Below the pieces are notes generated by a model, which was given only the letters and a program-made list of their open reading frames with translations, had not been told where the DNA came from and ran no database searches. Positions 3,177 through 40,323 of a stretch of DNA of 64,000 bases are shown piece after piece. How positions within the stretch are numbered: the first letter of the stretch is position 1; each line of letters begins with the position of its first letter. Made by a program: the position numbers and the translations under genes. The stretch comes from Gammaproteobacteria bacterium (lineage in GTDB: Bacteria > Pseudomonadota > Gammaproteobacteria > Eutrophobiales > Eutrophobiaceae), in assembly GCA_965248145.1 (NCBI GenBank), contig OZ252091.1:2626649-2690648 (forward strand), read 5' to 3'.

Positions 3177-3300
3177 GCCACAGAGGACACAGAGATCACA
3201 GAGTAAATCGAGAATCATTTTGAATCATGGGTAACCTTTATGTTTATCGATTTATCTTATCCATTATTCATTTTGTTTTTATCTCTGTGTCCTCTGTGGC
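3177..3300. mobile_element. MITE-like intergenic repeat (type A), full copy.
   Basis: Termini are GCCACAGAGGACACAGAGATCACAGAGT ... TCTCTGTGTCCTCTGTGGC. The same ~125-135 bp element with inverted ends recurs at 4789-4920, 9467-9649 and 40192-40323. Confidence 0.75.
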
Positions 3301-3320
3301 AAGAAAAAAAGCAGGGTTAA

Positions 3321-4754
3321 TCAGGCAAACAGGTTGCCGGGGTCCAGCGCCTGTTTGAGCCTTGTGCGTAATTCGCTCATTCCGGCGTTATCATAGCTTG
3401 CCAATGCCCTGTCCAGGTGGCCGGTGCTGATGTGGCTCACCCCGAATCCCCTGTCCGTCATCGTATCTATCAGCGCGTCAAGACAGGCGATAGCCCTGTC
3501 CTGGGCCGCGTCCTGATACGTGAGGTAAACCCGTTGAATAATGGAGCGCCAACCAACCGCATATTCCGTCAGGTAATCAAATCCTCTTTTTTGCAGCGTG
3601 TCGGTGACCAGTTTATTCATCTTCAATACCTGCCGGCCGTCAACAGGCGCGACAAAACCGGCGTACAAGTGTGAATGACCGGACCAGTTCCCCGGGTTAT
3701 TGAACTCGGTCGATGGTTGCCCGCGCATCATCCTCTCCCGGTTGGAAAACACCGGGTTTGTGGCCTGCGTCTTTAAATCGATGACCCTGGCTCCGCCAAT
3801 GCCGGCAAAAGCGCCCTGCACCATGGGCCATAACACATCGACGTTGGGGGGAGTGTTATACAGCGCGCCGTACAGGGTCCAAAGTCCCAGGCCATAATCC
3901 GTCTTCAGCCTTTCCATATCAACAGTATTACCGTCGGCATAATCCTGCCGGGACCTGAAAGGACTCACGTCGAGAAGCGGATTACTGATAACAACGGTGT
4001 TCGGTATGATCACGTTGACTTTAAATGATCGCAATATCTCAACGGCCTGTGCCATGTCACTGACAGCTTCCAGGGTGACTGCGAAAGGTTGATAAGCAGG
4101 CGGCGCCGGCATCAACCAGACCCCCATTTTGGTCACCACCCCGAGGTTGGATTGCGTAAACAAGCCATCCAGGTAGGGGCCGTAGGCATATTTCGCCAAT
4201 TGCCAGGTATTGCTGTTCGGCATGGCGCCCATACCCAGCCTGACCAACCCGCCGTCTGCCAGCATGACTTCCATCCCACACTGCATCATCGTATGATCGC
4301 CATACGCGGTATAACCAAACTCCCGGGCAGTGATACTGCCGGCAACGGAATTCAATCCATTCCTGTCACAGTCCACCCACAGACCGGTCTTGTTTTCCTC
4401 CAGGTACTCGTTCAGTTGCGCATAACTCACGCCCGGTTCCACCAGGGCATAAGCGCCTTTGGTGTTTACCTCCACGATGTTATTCATCCGGGATTGGTCC
4501 ACAACCAGGACATCCTTATCCGTTGAGGCATTGACCACACCCCCGTTAGCGGCAAGATTGGGCAGTATCCAGAGTGAAACACCTCTTTTGGCAGCGGCCG
4601 ACAATACTGTCCTCAACTGTTCAACGTCTTTGGGAAGAACCGCGCCGACAGGCGTTTTGCCGAAGCTCCCGTAACGCTCGCTGACAACCGAGCCTGACAA
4701 CACGGCGGTTTTACCCAGTTTACGCCTCAGTTCAGTGACTATCCGGTTTGCCAT
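3321..4754 (-). CDS. VAO/PCMH-family FAD-linked oxidase (vanillyl-alcohol oxidase / 4-cresol dehydrogenase flavoprotein-like), with no signal peptide.
   Basis: A 477-aa paralogue of the ORF at 7051-8691, showing the same block order (…GAYALVEPGVSY…, …MPAPPAYQPF…) typical of PCMH-type FAD-binding domains. Confidence 0.75.
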   Translation of the reverse strand: MANRIVTELRRKLGKTAVLSGSVVSERYGSFGKTPVGAVLPKDVEQLRTVLSAAAKRGVSLWILPNLAANGGVVNASTDKDVLVVDQSRMNNIVEVNTKGAYALVEPGVSYAQLNEYLEENKTGLWVDCDRNGLNSVAGSITAREFGYTAYGDHTMMQCGMEVMLADGGLVRLGMGAMPNSNTWQLAKYAYGPYLDGLFTQSNLGVVTKMGVWLMPAPPAYQPFAVTLEAVSDMAQAVEILRSFKVNVIIPNTVVISNPLLDVSPFRSRQDYADGNTVDMERLKTDYGLGLWTLYGALYNTPPNVDVLWPMVQGAFAGIGGARVIDLKTQATNPVFSNRERMMRGQPSTEFNNPGNWSGHSHLYAGFVAPVDGRQVLKMNKLVTDTLQKRGFDYLTEYAVGWRSIIQRVYLTYQDAAQDRAIACLDALIDTMTDRGFGVSHISTGHLDRALASYDNAGMSELRTRLKQALDPGNLFA

Positions 4755-4788
4755 CTACACTCATCCTGTCAGGAAACGGAATTTGTTT

Positions 4789-4920
4789 GCCACAGAGGAC
4801 ACAGAGATCACAGAGTGAATCGAGATTCTTTTTGATACTTGGGCAACCAGAATGGTTAGCAATTTATCTTGATCATCATTCATATTATTTTTTCTCTGTG
4901 TCCTCTGTGTCCTCTGTGGC
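4789..4920. mobile_element. MITE-like intergenic repeat (type A), full copy.
   Basis: Same terminal sequences as 3177-3300, with the 3' end duplicated (TGTCCTCTGTGTCCTCTGTGGC). Confidence 0.75.
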
Positions 4921-4935
4921 GTAAATGTTTAATTT

Positions 4936-5178
4936 TTAATGCACTTCGTCCGTTTTCGCGGGAGGAATATTGTGTTTGTATTCTTCAGGGTGATCCGGGT
5001 CTGCCCGGAACCAGGCTTCCCGTTTCGCATAGTCCGTGGATTCATCGGGCTCGCTGTCGCGCCAGGTAAACGAACAACGCCGGCAGTGAAAAACGGTCCA
5101 GACGATTTCATCCCCTTCCCTGCCCTGGTATTCGACGCGCAGGTGTTCTTCGGCTGAGCGGCAGCGGGGGCAACTCAT
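4936..5178 (-). CDS. Small zinc-ribbon subunit D of a VdcBCD/BsdBCD-type phenolic acid decarboxylase.
   Basis: 80 aa, with the CPRC...WTVFHCRRCSFTWRDSEP pattern characteristic of VdcD/BsdD/EcdD-like subunits. It overlaps the upstream UbiD-family gene by 4 nt. Confidence 0.65.
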   Translation of the reverse strand: MSCPRCRSAEEHLRVEYQGREGDEIVWTVFHCRRCSFTWRDSEPDESTDYAKREAWFRADPDHPEEYKHNIPPAKTDEVH

Positions 5179-6659
5179 TGGCTTTCCGCCTCTTTTTGCA
5201 GTTGTTGGATATATTTTGCCAGGTCATCAATTTCGACGCCCCTGGGTGGCGATACAATCTTCGCGTCACCGCCGATGGGGTCGGGAGGCATGAAACTGGT
5301 GGCGTCAATGATTAAACGATGGCCCTTGCCCGGAATTTCCGCGGCCGGGTCAATGATTACCAGAGGCATATTCGGTATGACGATAATATCGTTGGCGCGA
5401 GTGCGGGTGGACAAGGCCCACATCACCTGGTTGAGGTCAAAGGGATCGACGTCATCATCCACCAGGATAAGATTTTTCAGGTACATCAGGCCATGGGGCG
5501 TTCCCAGGGCGCGCATGGCCACTGACTTGGCAAAACCGGCAAACCGATTCTTCACTGAAATAATCCCGGTCAGGCCATGCTGGTACAAGGCATTCACCGC
5601 GACAACCTCAGGGAAGTTTTCCTTTAACTGGGAATAGATGGGCGCACTAGTGCTCAGCCCGATCAGCGTATCGTGTTCGGTCCAACCTTTGCCGATATAA
5701 ATATTTTCAAAGATCGGGTCGGTACGGTGGGAAACGGCGGTGACCTGGAATAAGGGGACATGCCGGATACCGCTGTAACTGCCCGGAAATTCTCCGAACG
5801 GCCCCTCCAGGCAACGCCGGTTATTCAGCAACTGCGCTTCTATTACCATCTCCGCGCCGGCGAGAATGTCCAGACCGTTGCCGGAGCGGGTCAATTCAAT
5901 GGGACTGCCCATCATCTGCGAGGCATAGGCAAATTCCGATTCATCGTAATTGACGGGCGTGGCGGCAAACATGGCCATGGCCGGGTGGTTGCCGAGCATC
6001 ACGGCGATTTTCAGCGGGACATCATCCTCTTCCGCCATGCGGATCTGTTGCGCCATATCGTGGGACGGGACGGACAACAAGGTGAACTTATCCGGACCTT
6101 GTACCTGGATGCGATAAATTCCCACGTTCTGTTTGGAAAAATTATCCGGGTCACGGGGATCGCGACTGACGATATTGGCCTTGGCAATATAAAAACCACC
6201 GTCCAGGGCATTGATACGATACAGGGGCAGCAGGTCATACAGGTTGACATCGGTCTTGATCCTGTTCTCATTCACCGGTGCGTCTTCCGGTTTCACCCTG
6301 TCTATCAACGGCCGGTCGGAACCCCAGCGACCCGTCAGTTCGTAGAATAATTCCCTGATAGTGGTCCCTTTCTGCCGACCCAGCAGCAAGGCAATATTGG
6401 AAAAACTGCCATGCACCCCTACCACGAGCCGTTTCCCCGGATAGCCGCGGATCTTGTCGAACAGGATGGCCGGCCCGGTCATCGCGTCGCGACCCGCCGC
6501 AACAACAACCTTACGGATATCGGGTTCAGGCATCACGACATCCGGCCAGGTAATACACTGTCCGTGCTCGGCCAGTAATTCGAGATAATCCCTCAAACAG
6601 CGGACCCGTTCGGCTACGGCCCGGGCCTCGGTCGATAAGCTGGAGGTTTCCATATCCAT
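5175..6659 (-). CDS. UbiD-family prFMN-dependent (de)carboxylase (VdcC/BsdC-like hydroxyarylic acid decarboxylase).
   Basis: 494 aa, with UbiD-family conserved blocks. Its start overlaps the stop of the preceding cytochrome c gene, and it is followed by a D-subunit gene with ubiX nearby. Confidence 0.85.
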   Translation of the reverse strand: MDMETSSLSTEARAVAERVRCLRDYLELLAEHGQCITWPDVVMPEPDIRKVVVAAGRDAMTGPAILFDKIRGYPGKRLVVGVHGSFSNIALLLGRQKGTTIRELFYELTGRWGSDRPLIDRVKPEDAPVNENRIKTDVNLYDLLPLYRINALDGGFYIAKANIVSRDPRDPDNFSKQNVGIYRIQVQGPDKFTLLSVPSHDMAQQIRMAEEDDVPLKIAVMLGNHPAMAMFAATPVNYDESEFAYASQMMGSPIELTRSGNGLDILAGAEMVIEAQLLNNRRCLEGPFGEFPGSYSGIRHVPLFQVTAVSHRTDPIFENIYIGKGWTEHDTLIGLSTSAPIYSQLKENFPEVVAVNALYQHGLTGIISVKNRFAGFAKSVAMRALGTPHGLMYLKNLILVDDDVDPFDLNQVMWALSTRTRANDIIVIPNMPLVIIDPAAEIPGKGHRLIIDATSFMPPDPIGGDAKIVSPPRGVEIDDLAKYIQQLQKEAESQ

Positions 6660-7045
6660 CAGTTTACTTCATCCGTAATATAGCTTGCCAGCGCGTCCAA
6701 CTGGCGGTCGGTAATTTCGGTGGGGCGAAACGGCGGCATCAGCTTGAAACCCTCTCTCACTACGGTCTTGATATAGTCGGGCGGTAATTCATCCCGGTTG
6801 AGCAGGACCGCTTGCTGCTCACCCAGTCTTTCCTGTAAGCGCATGGTCCCCGGATGACCCGGCCCCGCGCCATGACAGGCTATGCAATATAACTCAAATA
6901 ACGCTTTTCCGTCATGCGTGCCTGCCATTGCACCGGTCGGTTCAGTTACCTGCCCGGCTTTGCCTGCCCCGGCAGACTGGTCGTCTCCACAGCCCGCCAG
7001 CAAAAACAGGGCTGACAGGAGAACGACACCTCGATAATTCGTCAT
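6659..7045 (-). CDS. Mono-haem cytochrome c lipoprotein, PchC-like subunit of a p-cresol methylhydroxylase-type flavocytochrome.
   Basis: Lipobox LLAGCG and a single CIACH haem motif. It lies immediately downstream of the Tat-exported PCMH-like flavoprotein. Confidence 0.7.
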   Translation of the reverse strand: MTNYRGVVLLSALFLLAGCGDDQSAGAGKAGQVTEPTGAMAGTHDGKALFELYCIACHGAGPGHPGTMRLQERLGEQQAVLLNRDELPPDYIKTVVREGFKLMPPFRPTEITDRQLDALASYITDEVN

Positions 7046-7050
7046 AGCCG

Positions 7051-8691: not shown

Positions 8692-8702
8692 GACTCAGGA
8701 TT

Positions 8703-9446
8703 CTAGCCCTGGTTGAGTTTCAGATGTGATCCGTCACACCAGGGTTTGGTTTTTGAATACTTGCAACCACACAGCGCCACATGCTGGAATTCCTCCAGTT
8801 TAAATTCCAACGGTACACGCTTTGTTTCCTTATGGGAACCATCACAAAACGGTTGATTGCGGGAGCGACCACAGGCGCACCAGTAATAATCGCCCTTCTC
8901 CAGGTTCATCAAATAAGGGGAATTACGGCTGCCATCCGGGAATTTAGCCTTCACCCAGCCTTCTTTGTATGGACTGACCATATTCAATTTTAATTCCATG
9001 GATTGAAAATACCAGCGTCCGTCCTGTTTTACACATTGGCAGTCATAAGTACCGCCTATCCAGTGGGATTCCGCCTCGTCCGTGTGCGGGTTGGGCACGG
9101 TCGCCGATTCCCACAGGTACCAGAATAGCGTTGCCGTGCTGCCATCCGGAGCAATATCGATAAGTGGGGAGATCATGTAATGCAGCGACCACCAGATCTT
9201 CTCGCCGGCAATCCCATGCAGTCCTTTTGCCAGTTTATCCCGGCCATAATATTTTCCAAACCCCTTGCATTCCCAGGTGGCATCCTCGGCAAAACAGGGA
9301 CCGATAACTTCAGGGTCGTTGCCGCGATCGCAGCCCCTGGCATAGGTAACAATCAGGCGCTGTATCGCATCTACGTCTTCGAGGCGACTCAACTTGGCGT
9401 CCAGTTTTTCCAGCAGTCCCTTTATTTCCTTGAGTTCATTATTCAT
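8703..9446 (-). CDS. Fusion protein: an N-terminal NTF2/SnoaL-like domain (ring-hydroxylating-dioxygenase beta-subunit-like) joined to two C-terminal CDGSH iron-sulfur domains.
   Basis: The N-terminal ~150 aa resemble SnoaL_4 / RHO beta subunits (IQRLIVTYARGCDRGND...). The C-terminus carries two CDGSH motifs (C-x-C-x9-CDGSH twice: CACGRSRNQPFCDGSH and CGCKYSKTKPWCDGSH). Confidence 0.7.
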   Translation of the reverse strand: MNNELKEIKGLLEKLDAKLSRLEDVDAIQRLIVTYARGCDRGNDPEVIGPCFAEDATWECKGFGKYYGRDKLAKGLHGIAGEKIWWSLHYMISPLIDIAPDGSTATLFWYLWESATVPNPHTDEAESHWIGGTYDCQCVKQDGRWYFQSMELKLNMVSPYKEGWVKAKFPDGSRNSPYLMNLEKGDYYWCACGRSRNQPFCDGSHKETKRVPLEFKLEEFQHVALCGCKYSKTKPWCDGSHLKLNQG

Positions 9447-9466
9447 ATCGTTACCTTTATAAATCA

Positions 9467-9649
9467 GCCACAGAGGACACAGAGATCACAGAATCAGGGA
9501 AGAAGCAGGTTGGGATGGCCTTTTTAAGACCGTCGCCAGCCAGGGATGGCTGGCGATGAGCGTACAGGGACGTATTCACAGCGTGTCTTAAAAAGGCCAT
9601 GCCAACCTGCTGGAGTTATTATATTGAATGACTCTGTGTCCTCTGTGGC
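9467..9649. mobile_element. MITE-like repeat (type A ends) with a different internal core containing nested palindromes.
   Basis: It has the same GCCACAGAGGACACAGAGATCACAGA / CTCTGTGTCCTCTGTGGC termini. The interior carries the inverted repeats AGGTTGGGATGGCCTTTTTAAGAC / GTCTTAAAAAGGCCATGCCAACCT and CGCCAGCC-AGGG-ATGGCTGGCG. Confidence 0.7.
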
Positions 9650-9660
9650 TGTTCACTTTG

Positions 9661-10905: not shown

Positions 10906-11069
10906 AATAACTCCCCCAGGCTTTATAATAAGAAGTAAAGTGATTTAATTGTACGTTTGATCCTTTTTCCTTGCCAATTTTACATTAAAAAAAATAGTAT
11001 GAAAGAGAACAGCATGATTAAATTTGAACGCCCCCCTGCCCTCTTTCAACCACTCACCTGGAGAAAACC

Positions 11070-11297
11070 ATGACCAGTACGGCGGAAAAGAAAAAAATCA
11101 TCAGCGATTTCATCAGCAGGTGTAATGACTATGCAGACGGCCAAATCAGGAAATACCAGGTCCGACTGGCAGACGTTGACGCCATGGAAGCCCTGGATAT
11201 CGAGACAAAAATCTATCACTGGAAGATTTACCGGGCATTCAACGTCTATACCATTGAAGAACTCAAAACCAACGAACTGGATCCCTGGTTTGATTAG
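11070..11297 (+). CDS. Small hypothetical protein (75 aa).
   Basis: An ORF only. It is divergent from the Rieske oxygenase gene, and I recognise no family. Confidence 0.3.
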   Translation: MTSTAEKKKIISDFISRCNDYADGQIRKYQVRLADVDAMEALDIETKIYHWKIYRAFNVYTIEELKTNELDPWFD

Positions 11298-11368
11298 CTA
11301 CAAAAGACACAGAGATTAGAGCGTCGCCTCCGGCGACACCTTATCACACGCGCAAGCGGGGTCAGGTT

Positions 11369-11920
11369 TTAGTGAAACACCCTGGGTCGAAAGTCTGCCT
11401 CGTTGACGATACTGGCGCTGCTGCCGGTCGCCCGGATGACGTACAAGCCCTGGCGTTGTGCCTGGAGTACCACGTTAGAATCTGCCTTCAGGTATGCCAC
11501 GGCGCCCAGTATCCTGTTCCCCTTGTAGCGCCGTACCCACCCGGTGAAGCGCTCCAGCTTCGACAGAAAATGGGTCACGTCCTCAAGCCGTAACGTGGTC
11601 TTTACTTCCACCACCACTTCCTCGCCGTTCACGGCCAGAATATCAAACTCGTAATGCCGGCCCTCCTGTCCGCCCTTCACATTGGTTGAGGTTTCCTCCA
11701 CCGCAATCCCCTGCGCTTGTAACAGGGGCACCAGGTCACCTTCCACCAGACTCTCCATCAGCTTGCCCCAGCGACTGTTAAATTGCGCATCCGTCTTTTT
11801 TAACTGCCGGTCGGTTTCCTTTATCTGCCGGGATAATTCTTTTTGTTCCTCAGCAATGTCGCGCAGGATGTTCCAGATTTCCTCGGGGGTGGCGGGGGCT
11901 CGTTGTGGTTGGTTTTCCAT
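11369..11920 (-). CDS. Hypothetical protein with an N-terminal coiled coil and a C-terminal PD-(D/E)XK-like nuclease fold.
   Basis: Start chosen at MENQPQR, which is preceded by AAGGAG. The EFDILAVNGEEVVVEVKT segment resembles a D...E-x-K restriction-endonuclease-like core. No specific family recognised. Confidence 0.45.
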   Translation of the reverse strand: MENQPQRAPATPEEIWNILRDIAEEQKELSRQIKETDRQLKKTDAQFNSRWGKLMESLVEGDLVPLLQAQGIAVEETSTNVKGGQEGRHYEFDILAVNGEEVVVEVKTTLRLEDVTHFLSKLERFTGWVRRYKGNRILGAVAYLKADSNVVLQAQRQGLYVIRATGSSASIVNEADFRPRVFH

Positions 11921-12426
11921 GGTGACTTTCTCCTTTTTCATGTTGATGTTGCTAAATAGTAAAAGAGTAACGGGAGCATGTCAAAGTTAACAGTATGTCG
12001 CCAGGAGCGACTTATTGCACACGCAGAGGTTTGTCACACTCATTATCTTTGCGTGTGCAATGTGCGACCTGTCCCCCGTGTCCCCCGGACCCCACTGTCC
12101 CCCGATACGGGACCGTACACATTATATGTTACAGATACTGACAGTTTATCTATTCCTAACATTGATCTATACTGTTCCATACCATATATGATACGCTGTT
12201 TTATAAATACATAACATGCCCGTTTTCGTATCAGCGTACCGGGCAAGCTCTATCATGCCCGGTTTTGGCAGACGCGATGAGACGGGCAGATCATTAGAGG
12301 AGATAACGCGAATGAGATTTGAAAAAGCCTATTATGGTTGGACAGCGCGGCGCTTAACCCGGGAGGCTGCGGCGACAGTTGAGCAACCGGTTTCACACAC
12401 TATCTTCGCGAACCGCTAACAAAGGC

Positions 12427-12456
12427 TTGACATTCCTGATTTTTACTCACTAATAA
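12427..12456 (+). promoter_or_regulatory. Sigma70-like promoter (TTGACA - 17 nt - TAATAA) directly upstream of, and overlapping, the ATG that precedes the heptanucleotide repeat.
   Basis: Read directly: TTGACAttcctgatttttactcacTAATAATG. It marks the sharp boundary between AT-normal DNA and the GC-rich island. Confidence 0.35.
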
Positions 12457-13883
12457 TGTTCGACCGAGAGCCGAGAGCCGAGAGCCGAGAGCCGAGAGCC
12501 GAGAGCCGAGAGCCGAGAGCCGAGAGCCGAGAGCCGAGAGCCGAGAGCCGAGAGCCGAGAGCCGAGAGCCGAGAGCCGAGAGCCGAGAGCCGAGAGCCGA
12601 GAGCCGAGAGCCGAGAGCCGAGAGCCGAGAGCCGAGAGCCGAGAGCCGAGAGCCGAGAGCCGAGAGCCGAGAGCCGAGAGCCGAGAGCCGAGAGCCGAGA
12701 GCCGAGAGCCGAGAGCCGAGAGCCGAGAGCCGAGAGCCGAGAGCCGAGAGCCGAGAGCCGAGAGCCGAGTTGTGTCCGCAATTCGCCGGGGCGCGCCATG
12801 CCCCGGCTGGACGCAGCGTCACGAAGCGCGCCGCCTGAGCCTTCCCGGGCCGCGCGCTTCTTCCGCCCTGCCGATTGTTTCCTCCGCGTCGGGGCGGGGC
12901 TTGCGCGGGCGGGACGCCGTGGCCTCCCGGCGGGGCTGCTTGCAATCGTGTTGCTGGTCTTTCCGGTCGCTGCCGGAGCCGGGGCCGGCAATGCCACCGG
13001 CAGGCCGAGTTTTTCGGGGCAACCGATCCAAACCGGGGTGATTACCGCCATCACCAGCGGGATCGGGGATCCCGACGGGGTGGACACCGGCACTTTCGCA
13101 TACGAATGGCTTCGCTGTGACTCGACCGGCAACAACTGCAATACCACTGCCGGGACGGCCTCGACCTATACGCTGACCAATGCCGATATCGGCTTCAGGT
13201 TCAGGCTGCGGGTGAACTTCGAGGACAGCGATGGCAATGCCGAGTCGCGCACCAGCTTTCCATGGCCATCACGCTCCGGGAATGCGATCTACGCGTACCC
13301 GGCCTGCGCCGAGTCGGACTTGACGAGTCTCGACAGTATGAACCGAACGGCAATCTGGACCGGGACGCTGACGGTGGGGTTCTTCAAACAAGACAACACT
13401 TCCTTCTATGGGCGGGGACGGAGAGCTGGAACTTGGTACGGTCAACTCACCGATTCAGTGTTCTCTATCGATTCGAAAAACTACAGATTGCGCCTCCTCA
13501 ATTCGGAAGACGGCGGGACGGGGGACGGTGACCTTAACGTCGTATTCTACACCGCAACAAATGAAGCCTTGGGAAGCGCACACTACGCCGCACACCGCGC
13601 CGCTCTTGAGGAATATGCTCAAGTGCACATCTGCGACAAGGCGTTTGTCATAAGCGAAGCATCAAATTCGAACAGAAGTACGTATGTTTTTCTCGCTGCT
13701 TTTGAGCCCTTTCTGAGCGGGAGCACCCGGACGATACGCGTGAGCGTGCCGAATTCACTCTTGAACGCCGCACCGGAATCGATGGACAACAGCGTGGCGA
13801 CCAACGAGGACGAGGCCTACACCTTCCAGGTAAGCGACTTCCACTTCACCGACCCCGACATGGGGGCGCGCTCGCGAGCGTGA
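12456..13883 (+). CDS. 5' part of a giant GC-rich surface adhesin-like gene: heptamer repeat, signal/TM-like segment, cadherin/VCBS-like repeat. It is interrupted by a frameshift at about 13862-13866.
   Basis: Hydrophobic LLAIVLLVFPVAAGAGAG segment. Repeat module GVITAITSGIGDPDGVDTGTFAYEWLRCDSTG...YTLTNADIGFRFRLRVNFEDSDGNAES. The C-terminal domain (...YTFQVSDFHFTDPD) continues in the next ORF in another frame. Confidence 0.6.
   Translation: MFDREPRAESREPRAESREPRAESREPRAESREPRAESREPRAESREPRAESREPRAESREPRAESREPRAESREPRAESREPRAESREPRAESREPRAESREPSCVRNSPGRAMPRLDAASRSAPPEPSRAARFFRPADCFLRVGAGLARAGRRGLPAGLLAIVLLVFPVAAGAGAGNATGRPSFSGQPIQTGVITAITSGIGDPDGVDTGTFAYEWLRCDSTGNNCNTTAGTASTYTLTNADIGFRFRLRVNFEDSDGNAESRTSFPWPSRSGNAIYAYPACAESDLTSLDSMNRTAIWTGTLTVGFFKQDNTSFYGRGRRAGTWYGQLTDSVFSIDSKNYRLRLLNSEDGGTGDGDLNVVFYTATNEALGSAHYAAHRAALEEYAQVHICDKAFVISEASNSNRSTYVFLAAFEPFLSGSTRTIRVSVPNSLLNAAPESMDNSVATNEDEAYTFQVSDFHFTDPDMGARSRA
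12464..12769. repeat. Heptanucleotide simple sequence repeat, (CCGAGAG)n equivalent to (GAGAGCC)n, about 43 perfect copies.
   Basis: Perfect 7-bp periodicity over ~305 bp starting 6 nt after ATG 12456. Translated it gives (REPRAES)n in all three frames. Unit length is not a multiple of 3, so copy number sets the reading frame. Confidence 0.95.
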
Positions 13884-16800
13884 AGCTGGTGTCCCTGCCG
13901 GCGAAGGACACGCTCAAGCTCTTAACCGTGGCGGTGACGGCGAACCAGGTGGTGCCGGCGGGCGAGATCGGCAACCTGACCTACACCCCGGCCGAGAACG
14001 GGAACGGACCGGGCTACGACAGCTTCACCTTCAAGGTCAACGACGGCACCGACGATAGCGCGACGCCCAACACCATGACCATCGACGTGGCCTCGGTGAA
14101 CGACGAGCCGACGGGCCTGCCGACCATCACCGGCACGCTGACCGTCGGCCAGACGCTGACGGCGGACACCAGCGCCATCATGGACGTGGACGGGCTGACG
14201 AGCCCCGGCTACGGCTACGAGTGGATGCGGGCGGACCCGGGCCCTGTGAACCAGGAACCCATCGCCGGCGCGACCATGAAGACCTACACCCTGACCGACG
14301 CCGAAGCGGGCAAGGTGATCGCGGTGTCGGTGGCCTTCACCGACGACGGGGGCAGCAAACGGAGGCTGACCAGCGACTACTATCCGACAAGCGACACGGT
14401 GGCGGCCATCGCCCCCGGCAAGCCGAACGAACTCTTGGCGACGCCGGGCAACGCCCAGGTGACGCTGGATTGGATGGAGCCGACGAGCGACGGCGGGGCG
14501 GACATCACGGGCTACGAGTACCGCTGGTCGGAGGGCTCGACGGTGCCGGATAGCACGGCCTGGACCGCGGTGGCGGGCGGCGGCGTGCGGACGGTCGTCG
14601 TGACCGGCCTCGTCAACGACACGCAATACGCCTTCGAGGTGCGCGCGGTGAACAGCGCCGGCCCCGGCCCGGCGTCCGGCCCGGCGACCGCGACGCCGAC
14701 GGTGCAGTGGCGGCTGGTCAACGGGGCCGTGGCGCATGAGGGGCGGCTGGAGCTGCTCCACAACGGCGCGTGGGGGACGGTCTGCGACGACTACTGGACC
14801 GATGTCGAGGCGGACGTGGCGTGCCGGGCGGTGGGCTACTCAGGGGGCGCGGAGCGCTCGGAGCCGGGCGCGGAGCAGTTCCGGCGAGCCTATTTCGGCC
14901 AGGGCACGGGCGCCATCTGGCTCGACGACGTGAACTGTGTGGGCGACGAGGCGAGCCCGCTGATGTGTCTGCACGGGGGGGTCGGGGTGAACAACTGCGA
15001 CCACCGGGAGGATGTCGGGGTGCGGTGCAGGACGACCACGACGCCGCGGGTGGAGTCCATCGAGGTGAGCCCTGCGCCCGGGGGGAACGGGCGCTACGAC
15101 GCGGGCGAGACGCTGGCGGTGACGCTGGTGTGGAGCGAGCCGGTGACGGTGGCGACCCCGGCAGGCGCCCTGGCGCCGAAGGTGTGGGTCGCGTACGGCG
15201 TGGGCGTGGAGGCCAGGGCGGAGTATGCGAGCGGGTCGGGGACGGCGCGCACGGTGTTCGCGCACACGCTGACGCAAGCCGACAAGTTGGTGGATGACGG
15301 CGGACCGGTGTCGTACGAGGAGGTGCAGGTGTACCGCAACAGCCTGCGGCTGCGCGGCGGCGCCATCACGTCGGTGGCGGCCGGGGTGGCGGCGGCGCTC
15401 GGGCACGACGGGTACCCGGACGCGGCGCGCCAGCTCGAGGCGGCGGTGGTGGTGGGGCCGCCCGGCCTGAGCGCGGCGGGCGCCGACGGGGTCTGGGGTG
15501 CGGGCGAGACGGTGGAGGTGACGCTCGCCTTCAGCCGCGCGGTGACGGTGGACACGGCGGGCGGCACGCCGACGGTGGGTCTGCGGCTCGGCGGCTCGGC
15601 CGGGCGCAGCGCCGCCTACCTGCGCGGCAGCGGGACGACGGTGCTGGTGTTCGGTTACACGCTCGCCGGCGACGACGGCGCGCACACTGCGCTGCTGGTG
15701 CCGGAGAACAGCCTGGCGCTGAACGGCGGCGCCATCCGGGGCCGGCTGGCGGGGCTCGACGCGGCGCTCGGCCACGACGGCGCGGGCGAGGTGGTGGCGC
15801 CGCCGCCGCCGGGTGGGGCGTCCGGTCCGACGGCGCGCTTCGAGGGGCTGCCCGCGGCCCACGAGGGATCGGGCGCGTTTTCGTTCGAATTGCACTTCAG
15901 CGAAGAGCCCGAGGGCTTGAGCTACACGACGGTGGGCGGCGGGCTGCTCACGCTGAGCGGCGGCGCGGTGAGCGGCGCGCGGCGCCTCGCGCAGGGCAGC
16001 GATGCGGGCTGGGCGGTGAGCGTCGAGCCGGCCGGGGACGGCGACGTGATCATTAGCCTGCCGGCGCGGGCGTGCGGCGAGACGCACGCGATGTGCTTCG
16101 CCGGGCGGCCGCTGGCGGAAGCGGTCTCGGCGACGGTGCCGGGAGCGTCTTCGACGGCGACGGTGCCGCGGACGCCGTTCACGGCGTCGTTCTCCGGCGT
16201 GCCGCCGGAGCATGACGGCGCGGGCGCGTTCACCCTCACCCTCGCCTTCGGCGCGGAGCCGGCGGGGCTGAGCTACCGGACGGTGCGGGACAGCCTGTTC
16301 ACGGTGACCGGCGGCGCGGTGACGAAGGCGCGGCGGCTCAGCCCCCCATCGAACCGGCGCTACGAGCTCACCGTCGAGCCCGCCGGCGACGCGGCGGTGA
16401 GGCTTGCGCTGGCGGCGCTGCCGGCCTGTGGTGTGGCGGGTTCGGTGTGCACGGCGGACGGACGCGCGCTCTCGGGAGCGCTCTCGGCGACGGTGCCGGG
16501 TCCGGCGGCGCTCTCGGTTGCGGATGCGAACGTGCGCGAGGGGCCGGGGGCGGTGCTGGCGTTCCGGGTCACCCTCGACCGGACGCGCCATGCCGCGGTG
16601 ACGGTGGACTACGACACCTCGGACGGGGCCGGGACCAAGCCCGCGAACGCGGGTACGGACTATACCGCGAAGAGCGGCACGCTTACCTTCGCCAGCGGGG
16701 AGAGCAGCAAGACAGTCTCAGTCGTTGTGCTTGATGACAGCCACGACGAGGGTGCGGAGACAATGTCCTTGACGTTGTCGAACCCGTCCGGCGCCAGCAT

Positions 16801-17305
16801 CGCTGATGCCACGGCAACGGGGACTATCAACAACACCGATGCCATGCCGCTGGCCTGGCTGTCCCGCTTTGGCCGCACCGTAGGGACGCATGTAATGACC
16901 ATGGTGGACGAGCGTATGCTGGCGGCCTCGCAGCAGGCGTCCCACCTGACGTTGAATGGCCGACAGATGCAGTGGGGTACGCCGGGGTCGGCAGATACCA
17001 GTCTGTCCGAACGCACCCGCGCCCTGCTTGGCAACTGGACCCGGGACCGGCAGTCACTGGAGAGCCTGCTGAGCGGCAACGTGGGAGCAAGCCCGCGCGC
17101 AGTCCTGTCCCGCAGTTCGTTCTATTGGACCAATATGCCCGCGGACGGGTCGGATACAGGACAAGGAGTCGCCTCCGGCGACACCTTATTTGATTGGACT
17201 CCGGGTCAAGCCCGGAGTAATGACGGTCGGGGCAGGAATGACAACGGAGGCAACACCGTCACCCCGGGCTTGACCCGGGGTCCAGTTGATAATGTGTCGC
17301 CGTAG
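13880..17305 (+). CDS. 3' part of the giant adhesin-like gene, carrying a cadherin/VCBS-like repeat, a fibronectin type III domain, an SRCR domain, repeated Ala/Gly-rich beta modules and a Calx-beta domain.
   Basis: FN3 at ~14411-14700 (PGKPNELLATPGNAQVTLDWMEPTSDGGADITGYEYRW...). SRCR at ~14707-15030 (WRLVNGAVAHEGRLELLHNGAWGTVCDDYW...CVGDEASPLMCLHGG...VGVRCR). Calx-beta at ~16507-16840 (…DYDTSDGAGTKPANAGTDYTAKSGTLTFASGESSKTVSVVVLDDSHDEGAE…). The GTG 'start' is really the continuation of the upstream ORF. Confidence 0.6.
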   Translation: MKLVSLPAKDTLKLLTVAVTANQVVPAGEIGNLTYTPAENGNGPGYDSFTFKVNDGTDDSATPNTMTIDVASVNDEPTGLPTITGTLTVGQTLTADTSAIMDVDGLTSPGYGYEWMRADPGPVNQEPIAGATMKTYTLTDAEAGKVIAVSVAFTDDGGSKRRLTSDYYPTSDTVAAIAPGKPNELLATPGNAQVTLDWMEPTSDGGADITGYEYRWSEGSTVPDSTAWTAVAGGGVRTVVVTGLVNDTQYAFEVRAVNSAGPGPASGPATATPTVQWRLVNGAVAHEGRLELLHNGAWGTVCDDYWTDVEADVACRAVGYSGGAERSEPGAEQFRRAYFGQGTGAIWLDDVNCVGDEASPLMCLHGGVGVNNCDHREDVGVRCRTTTTPRVESIEVSPAPGGNGRYDAGETLAVTLVWSEPVTVATPAGALAPKVWVAYGVGVEARAEYASGSGTARTVFAHTLTQADKLVDDGGPVSYEEVQVYRNSLRLRGGAITSVAAGVAAALGHDGYPDAARQLEAAVVVGPPGLSAAGADGVWGAGETVEVTLAFSRAVTVDTAGGTPTVGLRLGGSAGRSAAYLRGSGTTVLVFGYTLAGDDGAHTALLVPENSLALNGGAIRGRLAGLDAALGHDGAGEVVAPPPPGGASGPTARFEGLPAAHEGSGAFSFELHFSEEPEGLSYTTVGGGLLTLSGGAVSGARRLAQGSDAGWAVSVEPAGDGDVIISLPARACGETHAMCFAGRPLAEAVSATVPGASSTATVPRTPFTASFSGVPPEHDGAGAFTLTLAFGAEPAGLSYRTVRDSLFTVTGGAVTKARRLSPPSNRRYELTVEPAGDAAVRLALAALPACGVAGSVCTADGRALSGALSATVPGPAALSVADANVREGPGAVLAFRVTLDRTRHAAVTVDYDTSDGAGTKPANAGTDYTAKSGTLTFASGESSKTVSVVVLDDSHDEGAETMSLTLSNPSGASIADATATGTINNTDAMPLAWLSRFGRTVGTHVMTMVDERMLAASQQASHLTLNGRQMQWGTPGSADTSLSERTRALLGNWTRDRQSLESLLSGNVGASPRAVLSRSSFYWTNMPADGSDTGQGVASGDTLFDWTPGQARSNDGRGRNDNGGNTVTPGLTRGPVDNVSP

Positions 17306-17319
17306 GCGACTGCAACGAG

Positions 17320-18744
17320 TTATAACGGTTTTGACAGGAAATCCCAGAAGACTATAAAAAAGATCGTCGACAGCGCCAGCGTCAGAAGCATAACCGGCAG
17401 GCCCTTCCTGAACCAGAGTCCGGGCGTGATGCGCAGGCTCGGATCATTCTCGTTTCTTGCCAAGCGCTCTGAAATCGTCACGATGAACACGTTTGCAGTG
17501 GACCCGATATGAGTCCCGTTGCCGCCCATACCAACCCCTACGGCCAATCCCCACCACAGCGGAGTGACATTAATCCCTGCCGATTCCATACTCAAAATGA
17601 TGGGTATCATCGCTGCCGTAAAAGGAATATTATCGATGGCCGCGGACAGGGCAGCCCCCGCCCACATCAATACGATGGTTGCCATCAGCAGGTCCTGTTG
17701 CACAAACGGTGTAATAAACTGGCCGAGATACATAAGAAACTGGCTGTGTTCCACACCGCCTACCAGCATGAATAATGAAATAAAGAACACCAGCAAGGTG
17801 ATTTCCACGTGTTCAAACGTGTTGTCCATGATGATTTTGCGGGAGGCATACATCAGCGCCACCATTCCTACCGCCGCGACAAACCAGGGCTCCCAGTGCA
17901 GGAGATGATGGAACATGAACAGAACCACCATGATCCCAAGGATGATTAAGGAAGCGTTCCATACTCTCTTGTTTTTCAACTCTACCGAGTAATCAGATAC
18001 GTCTTCAGGGATCTGGGCAAGTTCCTGTTTGAACAGGAATTTCAGCAGGACCAGCACGCCTATCCAGGCGATGAATACCGGTGGGACCATATGGATGGCA
18101 AAATCATTAAACGAGATATTTGCCGCCGAACCTATCATCAGGTTGGGAGGGTCGCCTACCAGGGTGGCAACGCCGCCCGTATCAGACAACAAGGCGGCAG
18201 CCAACAGGTAAGGGATCGGCGTAATCTTTTGCGCCCGGGCAATCAGGATGATAAGAGGGCCGAAAATGACCACTGTCGTGACATTATCCAGCAACAATGA
18301 TAAGACCGTAACGCAGCTGCCTATCAAGGCCAGTAATAAATATAACCGGCCTTTGCTGAAATTGGCGATCCGGTAAGCCAGCATATCGAAACCACCGGTG
18401 GGGATCATGATGGCAACCACGGTCATCATGGCGCCCAACAGGAAAACAACGTTCCAGTCCACGGCCTCTACTGCCAGTTCCGGTGAGTAAAAACCATAAA
18501 TCTGCCCCACAATCACCATGGTGACAGCGCCCCCTGCCGCTATCTTCATCCGTTCCAGACCGTGCAGCATTTCAGTAAAAATGCCGACAAAGGTGAGGGC
18601 CAGTATGATTGCCGACACCAGCATCGCTTCACTAAATACCAACGGGCCATCCACCGTCATTGCCTGTTCCTGCCCGGATACGGCAAGAGCCAGGGCGGGG
18701 AATAATACGGTTGCTAAAATCGTGAAGATAATTCTTATTATCAT
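17320..18744 (-). CDS. ArsB/NhaD-superfamily permease (anion or Na+/H+-type transporter).
   Basis: 474 aa, polytopic, with the LDNVTTVVIFGPLI and GDPPNLMIGS motifs typical of the ArsB/NhaD permease superfamily. Confidence 0.55.
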   Translation of the reverse strand: MIIRIIFTILATVLFPALALAVSGQEQAMTVDGPLVFSEAMLVSAIILALTFVGIFTEMLHGLERMKIAAGGAVTMVIVGQIYGFYSPELAVEAVDWNVVFLLGAMMTVVAIMIPTGGFDMLAYRIANFSKGRLYLLLALIGSCVTVLSLLLDNVTTVVIFGPLIILIARAQKITPIPYLLAAALLSDTGGVATLVGDPPNLMIGSAANISFNDFAIHMVPPVFIAWIGVLVLLKFLFKQELAQIPEDVSDYSVELKNKRVWNASLIILGIMVVLFMFHHLLHWEPWFVAAVGMVALMYASRKIIMDNTFEHVEITLLVFFISLFMLVGGVEHSQFLMYLGQFITPFVQQDLLMATIVLMWAGAALSAAIDNIPFTAAMIPIILSMESAGINVTPLWWGLAVGVGMGGNGTHIGSTANVFIVTISERLARNENDPSLRITPGLWFRKGLPVMLLTLALSTIFFIVFWDFLSKPL

Positions 18745-18895
18745 TATAAGTTCCTGATTTTTAATAAAAATAAACCGGCAATAAATTCAGCCATACTTCC
18801 AGTTAAAGCCAAACCTCGGATTATATCGGAAATAACTTTTGAAGTTTAGATAATCAACGTTACGTTTTTTTTACGTTGTGTCCTCTGTGGACTTG

Positions 18896-18978
18896 ACATT
18901 TGGGGTCAGAGTAAAAATACTCAACAATAAACCAATACCACCTGCCAATATGGCTGTATTTTTACTCTGACCCCAAAT
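18896..18978. repeat. Palindromic hairpin element (type B), second copy, with an adjacent half-site of the type A repeat at ~18877-18890.
   Basis: CATTTGGGGTCAGAGTAAAAATA ... TATTTTTACTCTGACCCCAAATG, preceded by TGTGTCCTCTGTGG. Confidence 0.7.
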
Positions 18979-19027
18979 GTATTTGTCTCCCTGAACCAGG
19001 GACGCCGATAGAGTATAATCGCTGATC

Positions 19028-32814: not shown

Positions 32815-32851
32815 TTTTATTGTAGTTATTCGCTTCCGGTTTGCGCTTTTT

Positions 32852-33337: not shown

Positions 33338-33352
33338 ATTAACCGTTTGTTT

Positions 33353-34474: not shown

Positions 34475-34476
34475 GG

Positions 34477-36903: not shown

Positions 36904-38197
36904 TTGCGGCATTAATCATACTGCGGCCCTGGTTTTCTATCATGTACTCAAATTCATGGCGGTAATGTTTGATAAAGCTCTGTACCGGCCATGCCGCGGC
37001 ATCACCGAGCGCGCAGATGGTCCGCCCTTCAATCTTGTTGGCCACGTCAACCAGTTTGTCCAGGTCTTCCAACCGGCCCTGGCCGTCAATGATGCGGGAT
37101 AACATGCGATATAACCAGCCCGTTCCCTCACGGCACGGGGTACACTGGCCACAGGACTCGGCAAAATAAAACCGGGAAATACGCCTCAGCATCCTTACCA
37201 TGCAGGTGGTCTCATCCATCACCACCACGGCGCCGGTACCAACGGATGATCCCACAGCCTGCAAGGAATCGTAATCCATATCGGTTCGCATCATGATCTC
37301 GCCCGGCACCACCTGCACCGATGATCCACCGGGGATCACTGCTTTTAATCCCCGGCCTTTCCACACACCACCGGCCATTTCCAATAAATCTTTAAATGGT
37401 ATGCCCATGGGGACTTCAAAATTACCCGGTTTTTCCACGTGACCGCTCACGGAAAAACACTTGGCGCCGCCACTGTTCCCAACACCGAGGTCGGCAAACC
37501 AGCGCGCCCCTTTCAGTATGATTGTCGGCGCCGAGCAAAAACTTTCCGTGTTGTTAACGGTGGTGGGTTTGCCGTACAAACCGTATTGTGCGGGAAACGG
37601 AGGTTTGAACCGTGGTTTGCCTGTTTTGCCTTCAAGGGATTCCAACAGGGCTGTTTCTTCACCACAGATATAAGCGCCGGCTCCCAGGGTGGCATAAATA
37701 TCGATGTCTATGCCTGAACCGAGAATATTCCCGCCCAGTAAACCCTCATCATAGGCTTCTTTCAAGGCATCTTCAAAACGCCTGTAAGGTTCATCCATGA
37801 ACTCGCCGCGGATATAGTTGTAACCCACCGATGCGCCCATGGCATAACAGGCGATGGCCATGCCTTCAACCAGGGAGTGCGGATTAAAGCGGAGGATGTC
37901 ACGGTCTTTACAGGTGCCCGGTTCACTTTCATCGGAATTGCAGACGACGTATTTCGGATTGGGCACATCGGGGTTCATGAAACTCCATTTCAATCCCATG
38001 GGGAATCCGGCGCCGCCGCGACCCCGCAGACCTGAGCCTTTTATTTCCTCCGTCACGTCTCTCGGTAATATTTTTTCACTGAGGATTTTTTTCCAGGCCT
38101 GGTAGCCATCAACCCGATAATAATTCTCCAGGGTCCAGGGCTGCTCATATTTGAGCGTGGCGAAACAGACCGAATTAATGGCGTCCCGATCCATCAC
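36896..38197 (-). CDS. nuoF: NADH-quinone oxidoreductase subunit F (NADH- and FMN-binding).
   Basis: [13 protein letters not shown] and ...[10 protein letters not shown] motifs. Confidence 0.9.
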
Positions 38198-38691
38198 TTC
38201 AGCCCGTCCAGTACTTTGTCCACTAACTCAAGTGTCAGGTTCTCATAGTATTTATGATCGACCATCATCATGGGCGCCCCGCAGCAGGCGGCCAGGCATT
38301 CTTCTTCCTCCTTCAGGTAAATACGGTCATCCCGGGTGGACTCGCCGGTTTTCACCCCCAGTTTTTTTTCTATATGAGCGACAATATCATCCGCGCCCCG
38401 CAACATACATGAGATATTGGTGCATACGGACACGCTGTGACGACCACAAGGCTCGGTCTCCAACATGGAATAAAAGCTGGCGACTTCATAAACGGCGATA
38501 CGCGGCATCTCCAGGTAGTCGGCCACCGCGTTCATGAGTTCCGTAGTCAGGTAACCCCGATTCACATACTGTACTTCGCGCAAAGCCGCCAGTACGGCAG
38601 ACTGCTTCCAGTCCGCCGGATATTTCGTCAGCCAGACATTGATTTCTTTCCTGACGTGAGTCGATAATTTTTGTTTAGTTAAATTATTCAT
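38194..38691 (-). CDS. nuoE: NADH-quinone oxidoreductase subunit E.
   Basis: Thioredoxin-like 2Fe-2S subunit with the [14 protein letters not shown]...ACCGAP pattern. Confidence 0.85.
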
Positions 38692-38727
38692 GGTGAAAAC
38701 TATACCAGTCACGAAGGACACCGGCAT

Positions 38728-38923
38728 CCGTCATTCCGGGCTTGACCCGGAATCCAGTCAAATAAACCTTCCTTATAAGGAATCATTTAATCCACTGGAT
38801 TCTGGCATTCGCCAGAATGACGGCAGGGGAAAGACGGATGTTTTTGACGCCAGAGCGAGTCGTGCATTGTCTGCCTTATCTGAGTCTGTATTAATCTTTT
38901 TTCTCTGTGTTCTCTGTGGCTGA
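38728..38923. repeat. Intergenic inverted-repeat element between nuoE and nuoD, ending in a half-site of the type A MITE terminus (TTTTCTCTGTGTTCTCTGTGGC).
   Basis: Inverted repeats CCGGCATCCGTCATTCCGGGCTTGACCCGGAATCCAGTC / GACTGGATTCTGGCATTCGCCAGAATGACGGCAGG. Related motifs (CGGGCTTGACCCGG, AATGACGG) recur at 17225-17280. Confidence 0.5.
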
Positions 38924-40177
38924 TCACCTGTCGATCTCGCCGAAAACAATGTCCTGCGTGCCGATCACCGCGACCACGTCGGCCAGCATGTGCCCCTGCA
39001 CCATTTCGTTCATGGCCGATAGGTGGACAAAACCCGGCGGCCGTATCTTCAGGCGATAAGGTTTATTGGCGCCGTCTGAGACCAGGTAAATGCCAAACTC
39101 CCCTTTCGGGTGCTCCACGGCCGCGTATACCTCCCCTTCCGGTATACAGTAACCTTCGGTGAACAGCTTGAAGTGATGTATCAGCGACTCCATGTCGTCT
39201 TTCATCACTTCTCTCCGGGGCGGAACCAGTTTGTAATCATCAATAATGACCGGGCCCGGATTATTTCGCAGCCAATCCACGCATTGTATAATAATGGCAT
39301 TTGACTGGCGCATCTCCTCGACGCGGACCAGGTAGCGATCATAACAGTCTCCGCTGCTGCCCACGGGTATAGCGAAATCCAGTTGTTCATAGACTTCGTA
39401 GGGCTGCTTCCTGCGCAGGTCCCACTCCACGCCCGAGCCGCGCAACATGGGGCCGGTAAAGCCCAGCTCCACCGCTCTTTCCGGGCTGACTACGCCTATC
39501 CCTACCGTACGCTGTTTCCAGATCCGGTTATCGGTCAGCAGGGTTTCATATTCGTCAACGCAGCCGGGGAAGCGTTCCGTAAAATCCTCGATAAAATCCA
39601 GCAATGAACCCTGCCGGGTATCATTTAATTTTCTCACCTCTTTATCCGAACGGTTTACGGTCACCGTGTATTGCGGCATCTGTGCGGGCAAATCACGATA
39701 GACGCCGCCCGGGCGGTAATAGGTTGCGTGCATCCTCGTACCGGATACCGCTTCGTAACAATCAATCAGGTCTTCCCGTTCACGGAAGCAATACAGGAAC
39801 ATGGTCATGGCGCCGATATCCAGGCCATGGGCGCCCAGCCACATGAGGTGGTTAAGGACGCGGGTAATCTCATCGAACATCACCCGTATGTAGCGGGCCC
39901 GAATGGGCGGGGTGACACCCAGTAATCTTTCAATGGCCAGCACGTAAGCGTGTTCATTACACATCATGGACACATAATCGAGCCGGTCCATGTAACCGAT
40001 ACTCTGGTTATAGGGTTTGCTCTCTGCCAGTTTTTCCGTAGCGCGATGCAATAACCCGATGTGCGGGTCGGCGCGTTCAATCACCTCCCCTTCCATCTCC
40101 AGCACCAGGCGCAATACCCCATGAGCCGCCGGGTGTTGCGGACCGAAGTTCATGGTCATGTTCCTGATTTCAGGCAT
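38924..40177 (-). CDS. nuoD: NADH-quinone oxidoreductase subunit D.
   Basis: 49-kDa subunit blocks. Length 417 aa. It is a separate gene from nuoC. Confidence 0.9.
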
Positions 40178-40191
40178 AAATGAAAAAACCT

Positions 40192-40323
40192 GCCACAGAG
40201 GGCACAGAGATCACAGAGTGGATCGAGAATCTTTTTAGTACCTGGATAACCTTCATGTTTATCAATTTATCTTGTCCATTATTCATTTTGTTTCTTCTCT
40301 GTGATCTCTGTGTCCTCTGTGGC
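40192..40323. mobile_element. MITE-like repeat (type A), full copy, inserted in the nuoC-nuoD intergenic region.
   Basis: GCCACAGAGGGCACAGAGATCACAGAGT ... TCTCTGTGATCTCTGTGTCCTCTGTGGC. It abuts the nuoC stop codon at 40324-40326. Confidence 0.75.

Follow-up and report, generated by a model that had tools for sequence, protein, structure and literature searches.

Gene-less hairpin elements with phased CACAGAG-array ends in a gammaproteobacterial genome and their probable relationship to GxxExxY nuclease cassettes

Introduction

Correia elements of Neisseria and the enterobacterial repetitive intergenic consensus (ERIC) or intergenic repeat unit (IRU) sequences of enterobacteria are non-coding elements of 50-250 bp with terminal inverted repeats and variable or deleted cores, which lie between genes or within operons and are co-transcribed as hairpins. 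An element with coding capacity is the 23S rRNA intervening sequence with an open reading frame (ORF), found in Leptospira and Coxiella, the product of which is the S23p or four-helix-bundle protein (PF05635). In a third arrangement, REPIN/RAYT, doublets of REP (repetitive extragenic palindromic) sequences occur together with a REP-associated Y1 transposase (PMC3116915; PMC2817692). Here we describe a family of short hairpin elements, referred to as CACAGAG elements after the heptamer that recurs in their ends, in a 64-kb stretch of gammaproteobacterial DNA (positions 2,626,649 to 2,690,648 of contig OZ252091.1; hereafter the window), which forms part of a 3.77-Mb circular metagenomic contig.

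The initial annotation of the window had recognized a dispersed repeat family with inverted termini and without coding capacity, located in intergenic spacers including one inside the nuo operon, and our data support this description. The same annotation regarded the elements as structured RNAs resembling REP sequences or bacterial interspersed mosaic elements (BIMEs), a view from which we depart below. The family is not a lineage-specific REP-like repeat; the window holds a local population of a family that is spread over many phyla and linked with a large family of nucleases. It is the heptamer arrays at the ends, and not the cores, that define this family and are its conserved part. With moderate confidence, we interpret the window copies as non-autonomous, gene-less derivatives of cassettes encoding a GxxExxY protein, in which the heptamer arrays would be the functional ends recognised by the element's own nuclease.

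Results

CACAGAG elements of the window

Four full copies and three solo or degenerate ends were found in the window:

3177-3300: full gene-less copy of 124 bp; left array of three units at 3177-3203, AT-rich core, right array of two units at 3281-3300
4789-4920: full gene-less copy of 132 bp; three units per arm and an AT-rich core
9467-9649: full copy of 183 bp; core formed by a nested GC-rich palindrome with arms at 9504-9530 and 9585-9611
40192-40323: full gene-less copy of 132 bp; occupies the whole nuoC-nuoD spacer
38895-38922: solo two-unit end TTTTTTCTCTGTGTTCTCTGTGGCTGA; abuts the nuoD stop codon
18874-18891: degenerate solo end CGTTGTGTCCTCTGTGGA; adjoins an 85-nt hairpin repeat at 18896-18980
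11294-11317: degenerate solo left end TTAGCTACAAAAGACACAGAGATT; a ~6-kb high-GC block starts here

All four full copies and their termini had been placed correctly by the initial annotation. The half-sites that it had noted near 18877 and 38900 also proved to be real, with the extents listed above. Each terminus consists of two or three tandem 9-bp units (GC-CACAGAG GA-CACAGAG AT-CACAGAG), with the opposite end carrying the same array in inverted orientation. There are 27 exact CACAGAG heptamers in the window, nearly all of them inside end arrays. A search with an 18-mer of the terminus, allowing up to three mismatches, gave 16 matches in the window against 0.03 expected from shuffled sequences.

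The AT-rich cores of the copies at 3177, 4789 and 40192 are homologous (76-85% identity), as had been proposed. The core at 9467 had been described as swapped, which agrees with our finding that the copy at the same site in a relative (locus L026, 1504-1681) still begins with an AT-rich core. The orientation of the AT-rich core with respect to the flanking genes was split four to one or two in independent cases, numbers too small to speak for a bias.

Three of the four full copies lie between co-directional gene pairs. Amongst these, the 4789 copy is situated between the minus-strand genes 3321-4754 and 4936-5178. The genes nuoA to nuoN are also on the minus strand, and the 40192-40323 copy sits between nuoC and nuoD exactly as annotated; it abuts the stop codon of nuoC (40324-40326) on one side and is separated by 14 nt from the start codon (ATG) of nuoD at 40177 on the other. 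The remaining copy, 3177-3300, is located between convergent genes for a flavoprotein (2489-3076, plus strand) and an FAD-binding protein (3321-4754, minus strand), and for this copy the claim that all insertions lie within co-directional operons does not hold. A related element had also been thought to fill the nuoD-nuoE gap. This spacer contains one solo CACAGAG end and unrelated palindromes of the GTCATTCCGG..CCGGAATCCAG type, with no related full element.

Two other repeats were observed in the window. Palindromes of the GTCATTCCGGGCTTGACCCGGAATCCAG type, at 38730-38825 in the nuoD-nuoE spacer and at 17186-17300, belong to a separate dispersed family, and one is nested in the nuoD-nuoE spacer of the relative L199 as well. 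The 85-nt hairpin repeat (25-nt perfect arms and a 35-nt loop) is present twice in opposite orientations, at 3077-3161 and 18896-18980, and both copies directly adjoin a CACAGAG end, namely that of the 3177 copy and that at 18874-18891.

The ends are shared across phyla

To define the distribution of the family, an exact 26-mer of the terminus was searched in a collection of species-representative genomes. It was present in at least 116 stretches (loci L001-L116), labelled as at least eight bacterial phyla and two archaeal bins. The possibility that no further copies exist beyond the window can thus be firmly set aside. The record labels include Planctomycetota, Acidobacteriota, Beta- and Gammaproteobacteria, Thermodesulfobacteriota and Deltaproteobacteria, Bacillota, Chloroflexota, Nitrospirota and Verrucomicrobiota. 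Azospira oryzae DSM 21223 is the one cultured isolate among the listed records. A search of phage contigs gave no relative of GxxExxY and found the 26-mer in only 10 stretches, and the plasmid search yielded eight records, all non-mobilisable.

The ends in these loci pair into 93 hairpin elements of 51-372 bp, the smallest of which consist of two arrays and a 15-20-nt loop. The ends are shared between lineages, whilst the cores are unrelated. From 230 ends we derived a consensus that is symmetric on both sides, i.e., an A-rich tract followed by TTA-[NNCACAGAG]x3-AAAA, and the flanks of the elements form a weak inverted continuation, with TTA on one side and TAA on the other.

Many copies were found in the gammaproteobacterial metagenome-assembled genome (MAG) OZ242169.1, a relative of the window genome with ~83-85% DNA identity. 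Counted over OZ242169.1 and the window genome together, a 55-nt AT-rich core module of the gene-less form occupies at least nine different sites, from which it follows that the gene-less form itself has multiplied.

Full-length elements carry a GxxExxY nuclease gene between the arrays

In three elements of ~420 bp from three phyla (L108, L073 and L041), a 121-aa ORF lies exactly between the arrays. Its ATG is placed a few nucleotides past the last left unit. In L108 and L073, the TGA stop codon falls inside the first right unit, such that the protein ends in ..KR[LVI]SL; this arrangement is confined to part of the CACAGAG subfamily and is seen neither in L041 nor in the composite cassettes L117-L125 or in L213. 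The ORF encodes a GxxExxY protein (TIGR04256, E 7e-39; PF13366, i.e., PDDEXK_3, E 1e-37). On the L073 contig, the gene-bearing copy is accompanied by small hairpins. All-vs-all clustering of the ORFs of the 116 loci revealed no protein family that recurs beside the elements, the signal coming only from inside the long copies.

GxxExxY/PDDEXK_3 proteins are minimal PD-(D/E)XK nucleases, with Cas4, restriction enzymes and Hjc as their nearest folds. In the literature they appear only as proteins of unknown function with multiple transfers, and among solved structures no relative was found by sequence. The family comprises 28,815 clusters (at 50% identity) that reach E 1e-3, of which 10,037 reach 1e-10; 7,966 of 8,000 scored candidates pass E 1e-5. 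Some members (P0241-P0249 and others, 250-295 aa) possess two GxxExxY domains in tandem, which would fit with a dimeric mode of action of the single-domain protein.

A second sample of 80 independent metagenome loci was assembled with the GxxExxY protein alone, irrespective of any repeat. Among the GxxExxY genes with sufficient flanking sequence, 34 of 75 were tightly bracketed by an inverted repeat, as compared with two of 101 control ORFs from the same loci (Mann-Whitney p = 1e-13). Two or more phased units were present within 80 nt upstream of 50 of the 79 genes. Genes at least 63% identical to the query have mostly CACAGAG units with a 9-bp period, whereas those with ~50-55% identity have mostly CACGGAG, CGCGGAG, CGCAGAG, CACAAAG or CACGAAG units with a period of mostly 8 bp. 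The sequence and period of the unit therefore track the GxxExxY subfamily. The pattern common to the family, in which both ends are inverted arrays with at least two 8-9-bp units of the C[AG]C[N][N]AG type in phase, is displayed by all four window copies.

The same organisation was found outside metagenomes, in the finished genomes of three isolates. A GxxExxY cassette with arrays TAGCCACAGAGATCACAGAGGACACAGAGcacgATG is present in Rosistilla carotiformis. In Bacteroides finegoldii (L214, NZ_OY725952.1), GxxExxY and its own heptamer arrays lie between radA and a gene for an FAD-dependent protein, and in Sphingomonas parapaucimobilis (L215, NZ_CP155749.1) the gene is located between fabD and fabG, with CGCGAAG units; both sites lie inside core operons.

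Elements of intermediate size were also recovered. L088 (372 bp) retains GxxExxY residues 2-34 (E 2e-15) and 92-120 (E 7e-7) in different frames, and reads as an internal deletion of a GxxExxY cassette; a 242-bp element, L056, is related to it. At the other extreme are composite cassettes (L118-L125, spanning ~1450-3075 in each), in which GxxExxY is followed by a second short array and a variable cargo gene, the whole being enclosed by an array at one end and its inverted counterpart at the other. They are inserted between housekeeping genes (hppA/rsfS and argS). Their cargo, i.e., a SIR2-like protein in L124, FRG/PDC-S15 in L125 and DUF5677 in L119 and L120, looks defence-related.

The presence of such cargo beside GxxExxY raises the question of whether the nuclease is itself a passenger, the arrays being the ends of an element moved or maintained by another enzyme or a host pathway and GxxExxY its commonest load, be it a selfish, addiction- or defence-type nuclease. 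Most hairpins lie far from any GxxExxY gene, and a PD-(D/E)XK nuclease on its own would be an unusual mobilising enzyme, both of which fit this alternative. We consider it unlikely, given that no other protein family recurs beside or inside the elements and that the co-variation of unit sequence and period with the GxxExxY subfamily is not required of a mere passenger. The ORF is, moreover, fitted to the arrays, in that a few nucleotides separate the last unit from its start and that, for some members of the CACAGAG subfamily, its stop lies within the right array.

The arrays are conserved as sequence

Every window copy folds into a long and very stable hairpin, with folding energies between -48 and -110 kcal/mol (z-scores, -7.8 to -13.9). 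Across the 93 elements, heptamer positions agree between the two arms in 98.7% of cases, whereas spacer positions are complementary in only 50.6%, a level not above that of shuffled partners. In gene-bearing elements, G:U-type mismatches on the sense strand were not significantly enriched over A:C mismatches (26 vs 18). Given that the heptamers are conserved while the spacers are not complementary, the constraint acts on the heptamer sequence in phase and not on base pairing, a pattern that points to sequence-specific recognition rather than to a selected RNA stem.

Searches of Rfam gave no match at gathering score over the whole window. At an E-value threshold, region 3050-5000 produced only sub-threshold matches to eukaryotic miRNA-precursor hairpin models. 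A scan for terminators and promoters at the nuo copies returned nothing beyond chance and no terminator-like U-tract call. Since it is the heptamer sequence that is kept and not the pairing, and Rfam holds no match, the proposal that these are selected structured-RNA elements is not supported.

Gain, loss and age of the elements in relatives

The nuoC-nuoD spacer was compared in five relatives that had been fetched through their NuoC homologs and thus form a set unbiased by the repeat motif. The site is occupied in L198 and L200, where the right array is identical to that of the window at 27 of 27 positions and the left array at 85%, with a core identity of 46% (the random level) and flanks of 63-80%. 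The element is decayed in L202, absent from L199 and reduced to a single-unit remnant in L201, in which the nuoD-nuoE gap measures 2 nt. Further differences were seen in L026. Here a full copy separates two genes that have 11 nt between them in the window, and a minimal one-unit hairpin takes the place of the window's degenerate end at 11294 and of the apparently foreign 6-kb block that follows it. Other orthologous pairs display near-identical arrays and drifting cores, although these loci were chosen for one perfect array and are therefore supportive only. Copies are shared at the same sites with relatives whose DNA is ~82-88% identical. Judged from these comparisons, the element population in the window lineage appears to be old, with arrays that persist while cores drift or are replaced.

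These results also bear on the idea that the window copies are immobile, host-retained structural elements in the manner of REP, ERIC or Correia sequences, acting as RNA or DNA hairpins on mRNA processing, stability or translational coupling, with a purely historical link to GxxExxY. In its favour are the stability of the hairpins, the position of three of the four copies within co-directional gene pairs, the absence of a terminator-like U-tract call, and the retention of the nuoC-nuoD copy in relatives with a perfect right array around a core at the random level. Such a role is nonetheless improbable in our view. The spacers are not kept complementary and show no sense-strand G:U bias, there is no Rfam match, and the relatives L199 and L201 do without the element, which is thus dispensable. 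Nor would a local RNA role explain identical ends across phyla.

It is very improbable that the copies are ordinary miniature inverted-repeat transposable elements (MITEs) of an unsampled conventional insertion sequence with a DDE transposase (e.g., IS630/Tc1-like, with a TA target), as, despite their small size, terminal inverted repeats and AT-rich flanks with frequent TTA..TAA, more than 200 loci yielded no transposase-bearing copy, all coding copies carry GxxExxY, a target duplication is not consistently seen, and phased heptamer-array ends that track the GxxExxY subfamily would be left unexplained.

Other repeats and genes of the window

A classical REP/RAYT-type system, separate from the CACAGAG family, is present in the same window and provides an internal contrast. 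It comprises a RAYT-like Y1 transposase gene bracketed by its own repeat, TTCTGGGGACACAATACTTAATT, of which there are three tandem 32-nt units upstream of the gene and an inverted copy downstream, with hairpin doublets dispersed nearby:

50240-50908, plus strand: IS200-like Y1 transposase (PF01797, E 1e-12)
43030-43166, 44580-44654, 50109-50229, 50903-50943, 51794-51930, 52372-52403 and 56019-56156: repeats of the TTCTGGGGACACAATACTTAATT type belonging to the Y1 transposase

Toxin-antitoxin pairs (PIN/FitA-like, RelB/YafQ-ParE and RelE/HTH) at 42245-44518 and 51000-51711, just upstream of the nuo operon, are interleaved with these REP-type repeats.

The ~6-kb block beside the degenerate CACAGAG end (11303-17326) has a GC content of 60-74%, compared with ~50% for the rest of the window, and is absent from the relative L026; it has the appearance of a foreign insertion. 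Just within each of its two ends is a copy of an identical 22-nt direct repeat, GTCGCCTCCGGCGACACCTTAT (11323-11344 and 17168-17189), and a variant in inverted orientation occurs at 17289-17310. Large proteins with SRCR, Calx-beta, FN3 and cadherin-like domains are encoded in the block (12456-17305). The start of ORF 12456-13883 is overlapped by a perfect tandem array (12394-12853) with more than 20 copies of a 14-nt repeat, and a 9-bp periodic run, GTGTCCCCC, is found at ~12062-12100.

Adjoining the degenerate CACAGAG end is ORF 11369-11941 (minus strand, 190 aa), which has a hairpin repeat of the GTCGCC..GGCGAC-TTAT-CACACGC type on either side (11323-11350 and 11988-12020). We evaluated this ORF as a GxxExxY protein and rejected it; it gave weak matches to Hjc/DUF3782 (PD-(D/E)XK-like).

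Discussion

The connection between nuclease and arrays is drawn here by the logic that applies to REP and RAYT, namely that the gene is bracketed by the repeat, the type of repeat tracks the protein, and gene-less doublets outnumber the gene. From this we infer that the GxxExxY nuclease may recognise or mobilise the elements. In the mechanism that we propose, the arrays would serve as phased binding sites for the element-encoded nuclease, probably a dimer, which would bind and cleave array-bounded DNA in cis and in trans. Action in trans would allow copies without the gene to be propagated or maintained, much as REPINs rely on RAYT, and in the window genome the enzyme would be supplied in this way. 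The elements would settle in short AT-rich spacers at gene ends and would be tolerated in operons because they are transcribed through as hairpins.

A number of observations speak against this interpretation. A search for a GxxExxY gene found none in the 64-kb window, nor in the 8-kb pieces that were fetched from the close relative. A profile hidden Markov model (HMM) search of six-frame translations detected no significant GxxExxY remnant in the window cores (E > 20), and the resemblance of a LINMKV..KRFSI reading in a window core to the GxxExxY C-terminus LINFG..KRLSL was not significant in shuffle tests (z 0.5-2.3). A PD-(D/E)XK nuclease by itself is not known to make up a complete machinery for transposition. 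Target-site duplication is absent, with 2-bp direct repeats in 17 and 3-bp repeats in three of the 93 elements, and no clean empty site was recovered, as the relatives show gain and loss together with additional indels; for both of these reasons, movement is read from the distribution of copies only. Ascertainment accounts in part for the arrays being better conserved than the flanks, since L001-L116 were picked for one perfect array, and at the nuoC-nuoD site the arrays are kept in two of five relatives and decayed or lost in three. Finally, the assignment of the archaeal stretches (Bathyarchaeia and Methanoperedens) rests on MAG binning.

The finding itself is real and non-random, and the elements may represent a new kind of nuclease-linked mobile element. 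More tentatively, GxxExxY/PDDEXK_3 proteins could be the recognition and cleavage enzymes of a class of selfish elements in prokaryotes that has so far gone unrecognised. Elements of this class, with phased heptamer arrays as their boundaries, would move or persist with no DDE, HUH or recombinase enzyme and would leave no target duplication. They would spawn REPIN-like gene-less hairpins, would sometimes ferry defence-like cargo, and would cross phylum and possibly domain boundaries. The cassette family is apparently undescribed in the searchable literature, in which we found no description of the terminal motif and no link of GxxExxY to repeats.

Under this proposal, a very large family of small nucleases, at present annotated only by the name of a motif, would gain a function that is concrete and can be tested. 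If true, it would also add a second partnership of a protein with hairpin repeats to that of REPIN/RAYT, with another enzyme fold and with a wide horizontal spread, unlike that of REPINs. It would account for a recurrent class of intergenic hairpins in environmental genomes and MAGs, and for small ORFs there that are spurious (ATEDTEITE, LCDLCVLCG and similar). It further draws attention to array-bounded cassettes that are harmless inside core operons (nuo, fab) and that sometimes carry defence-like genes.

How, then, do the CACAGAG elements relate to systems already described? In common with MITEs, they are small and non-coding, have terminal inverted repeats, exist in multiple copies, and share their ends with a larger coding element (L108, L073 and L041), from which internal deletions are seen (L088 and L056). 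Two features of MITEs are lacking, i.e., a target-site duplication and a parent with a recognised transposase, the parental ORF being GxxExxY/PDDEXK_3, for which the listed function is unknown.

The REP/BIME-like nature assumed in the initial annotation finds no support. REP and REPIN sequences are built on an imperfect palindrome of 20-40 nt with a GTAG or CGTC head; the present ends begin with GCCACAGAG, consist of arrays of 9-bp units and have no such head. There is no link to the Y1 transposase of the window, and where a RAYT gene (Y1/HUH, PF01797) flanked by the same repeat would be expected, the coding CACAGAG copies carry the PD-(D/E)XK nuclease gene (PF13366). A BIME is a mosaic of alternating REPs with defined inter-REP motifs, in place of which we observe a single pair of inverted arrays with one core. 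The CACAGAG elements are hence MITE/REPIN-like derivatives and not REPs or BIMEs.

With Correia and ERIC/IRU elements, the CACAGAG elements share their size, inverted ends, absence of coding capacity, location in spacers and variable cores. They differ from these in having no sequence similarity to them, no TA or other target duplication, ends that are heptamer arrays, and a coding parent with a nuclease of unknown function rather than a transposase. The 23S rRNA intervening sequences likewise have a gene for ~120 aa between stem-forming inverted repeats and are transcribed through without destroying host function, although the protein family is another and the location is in rRNA helices; we know of no heptamer arrays in these sequences. 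A general likeness can also be drawn to free-standing homing endonuclease genes, which are small nuclease genes wedged in short spacers between conserved genes, as GxxExxY is between fabD and fabG, between radA and the next gene, and in the hppA..argS region. To our knowledge, homing genes are not bounded by inverted binding-site arrays and leave no gene-less hairpin populations within a genome.

A close parallel is with REPIN/RAYT. Both systems consist of short hairpin-forming doublets dispersed in intergenic DNA, together with a cognate gene that is itself flanked by the same repeats in inverted orientation; in both, gene-less copies far outnumber the gene and the same sites are kept over long times. 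The enzymes differ, GxxExxY being a PD-(D/E)XK nuclease and RAYT an HUH/Y1 transposase, as do the ends, which are two to four phased heptamers in the CACAGAG family and a single palindrome with a GTAG/CGTC head in REP. Lastly, REPIN/RAYT systems are lineage-specific and vertically inherited, whereas CACAGAG ends are common to many phyla and the accompanying gene family has been widely transferred.

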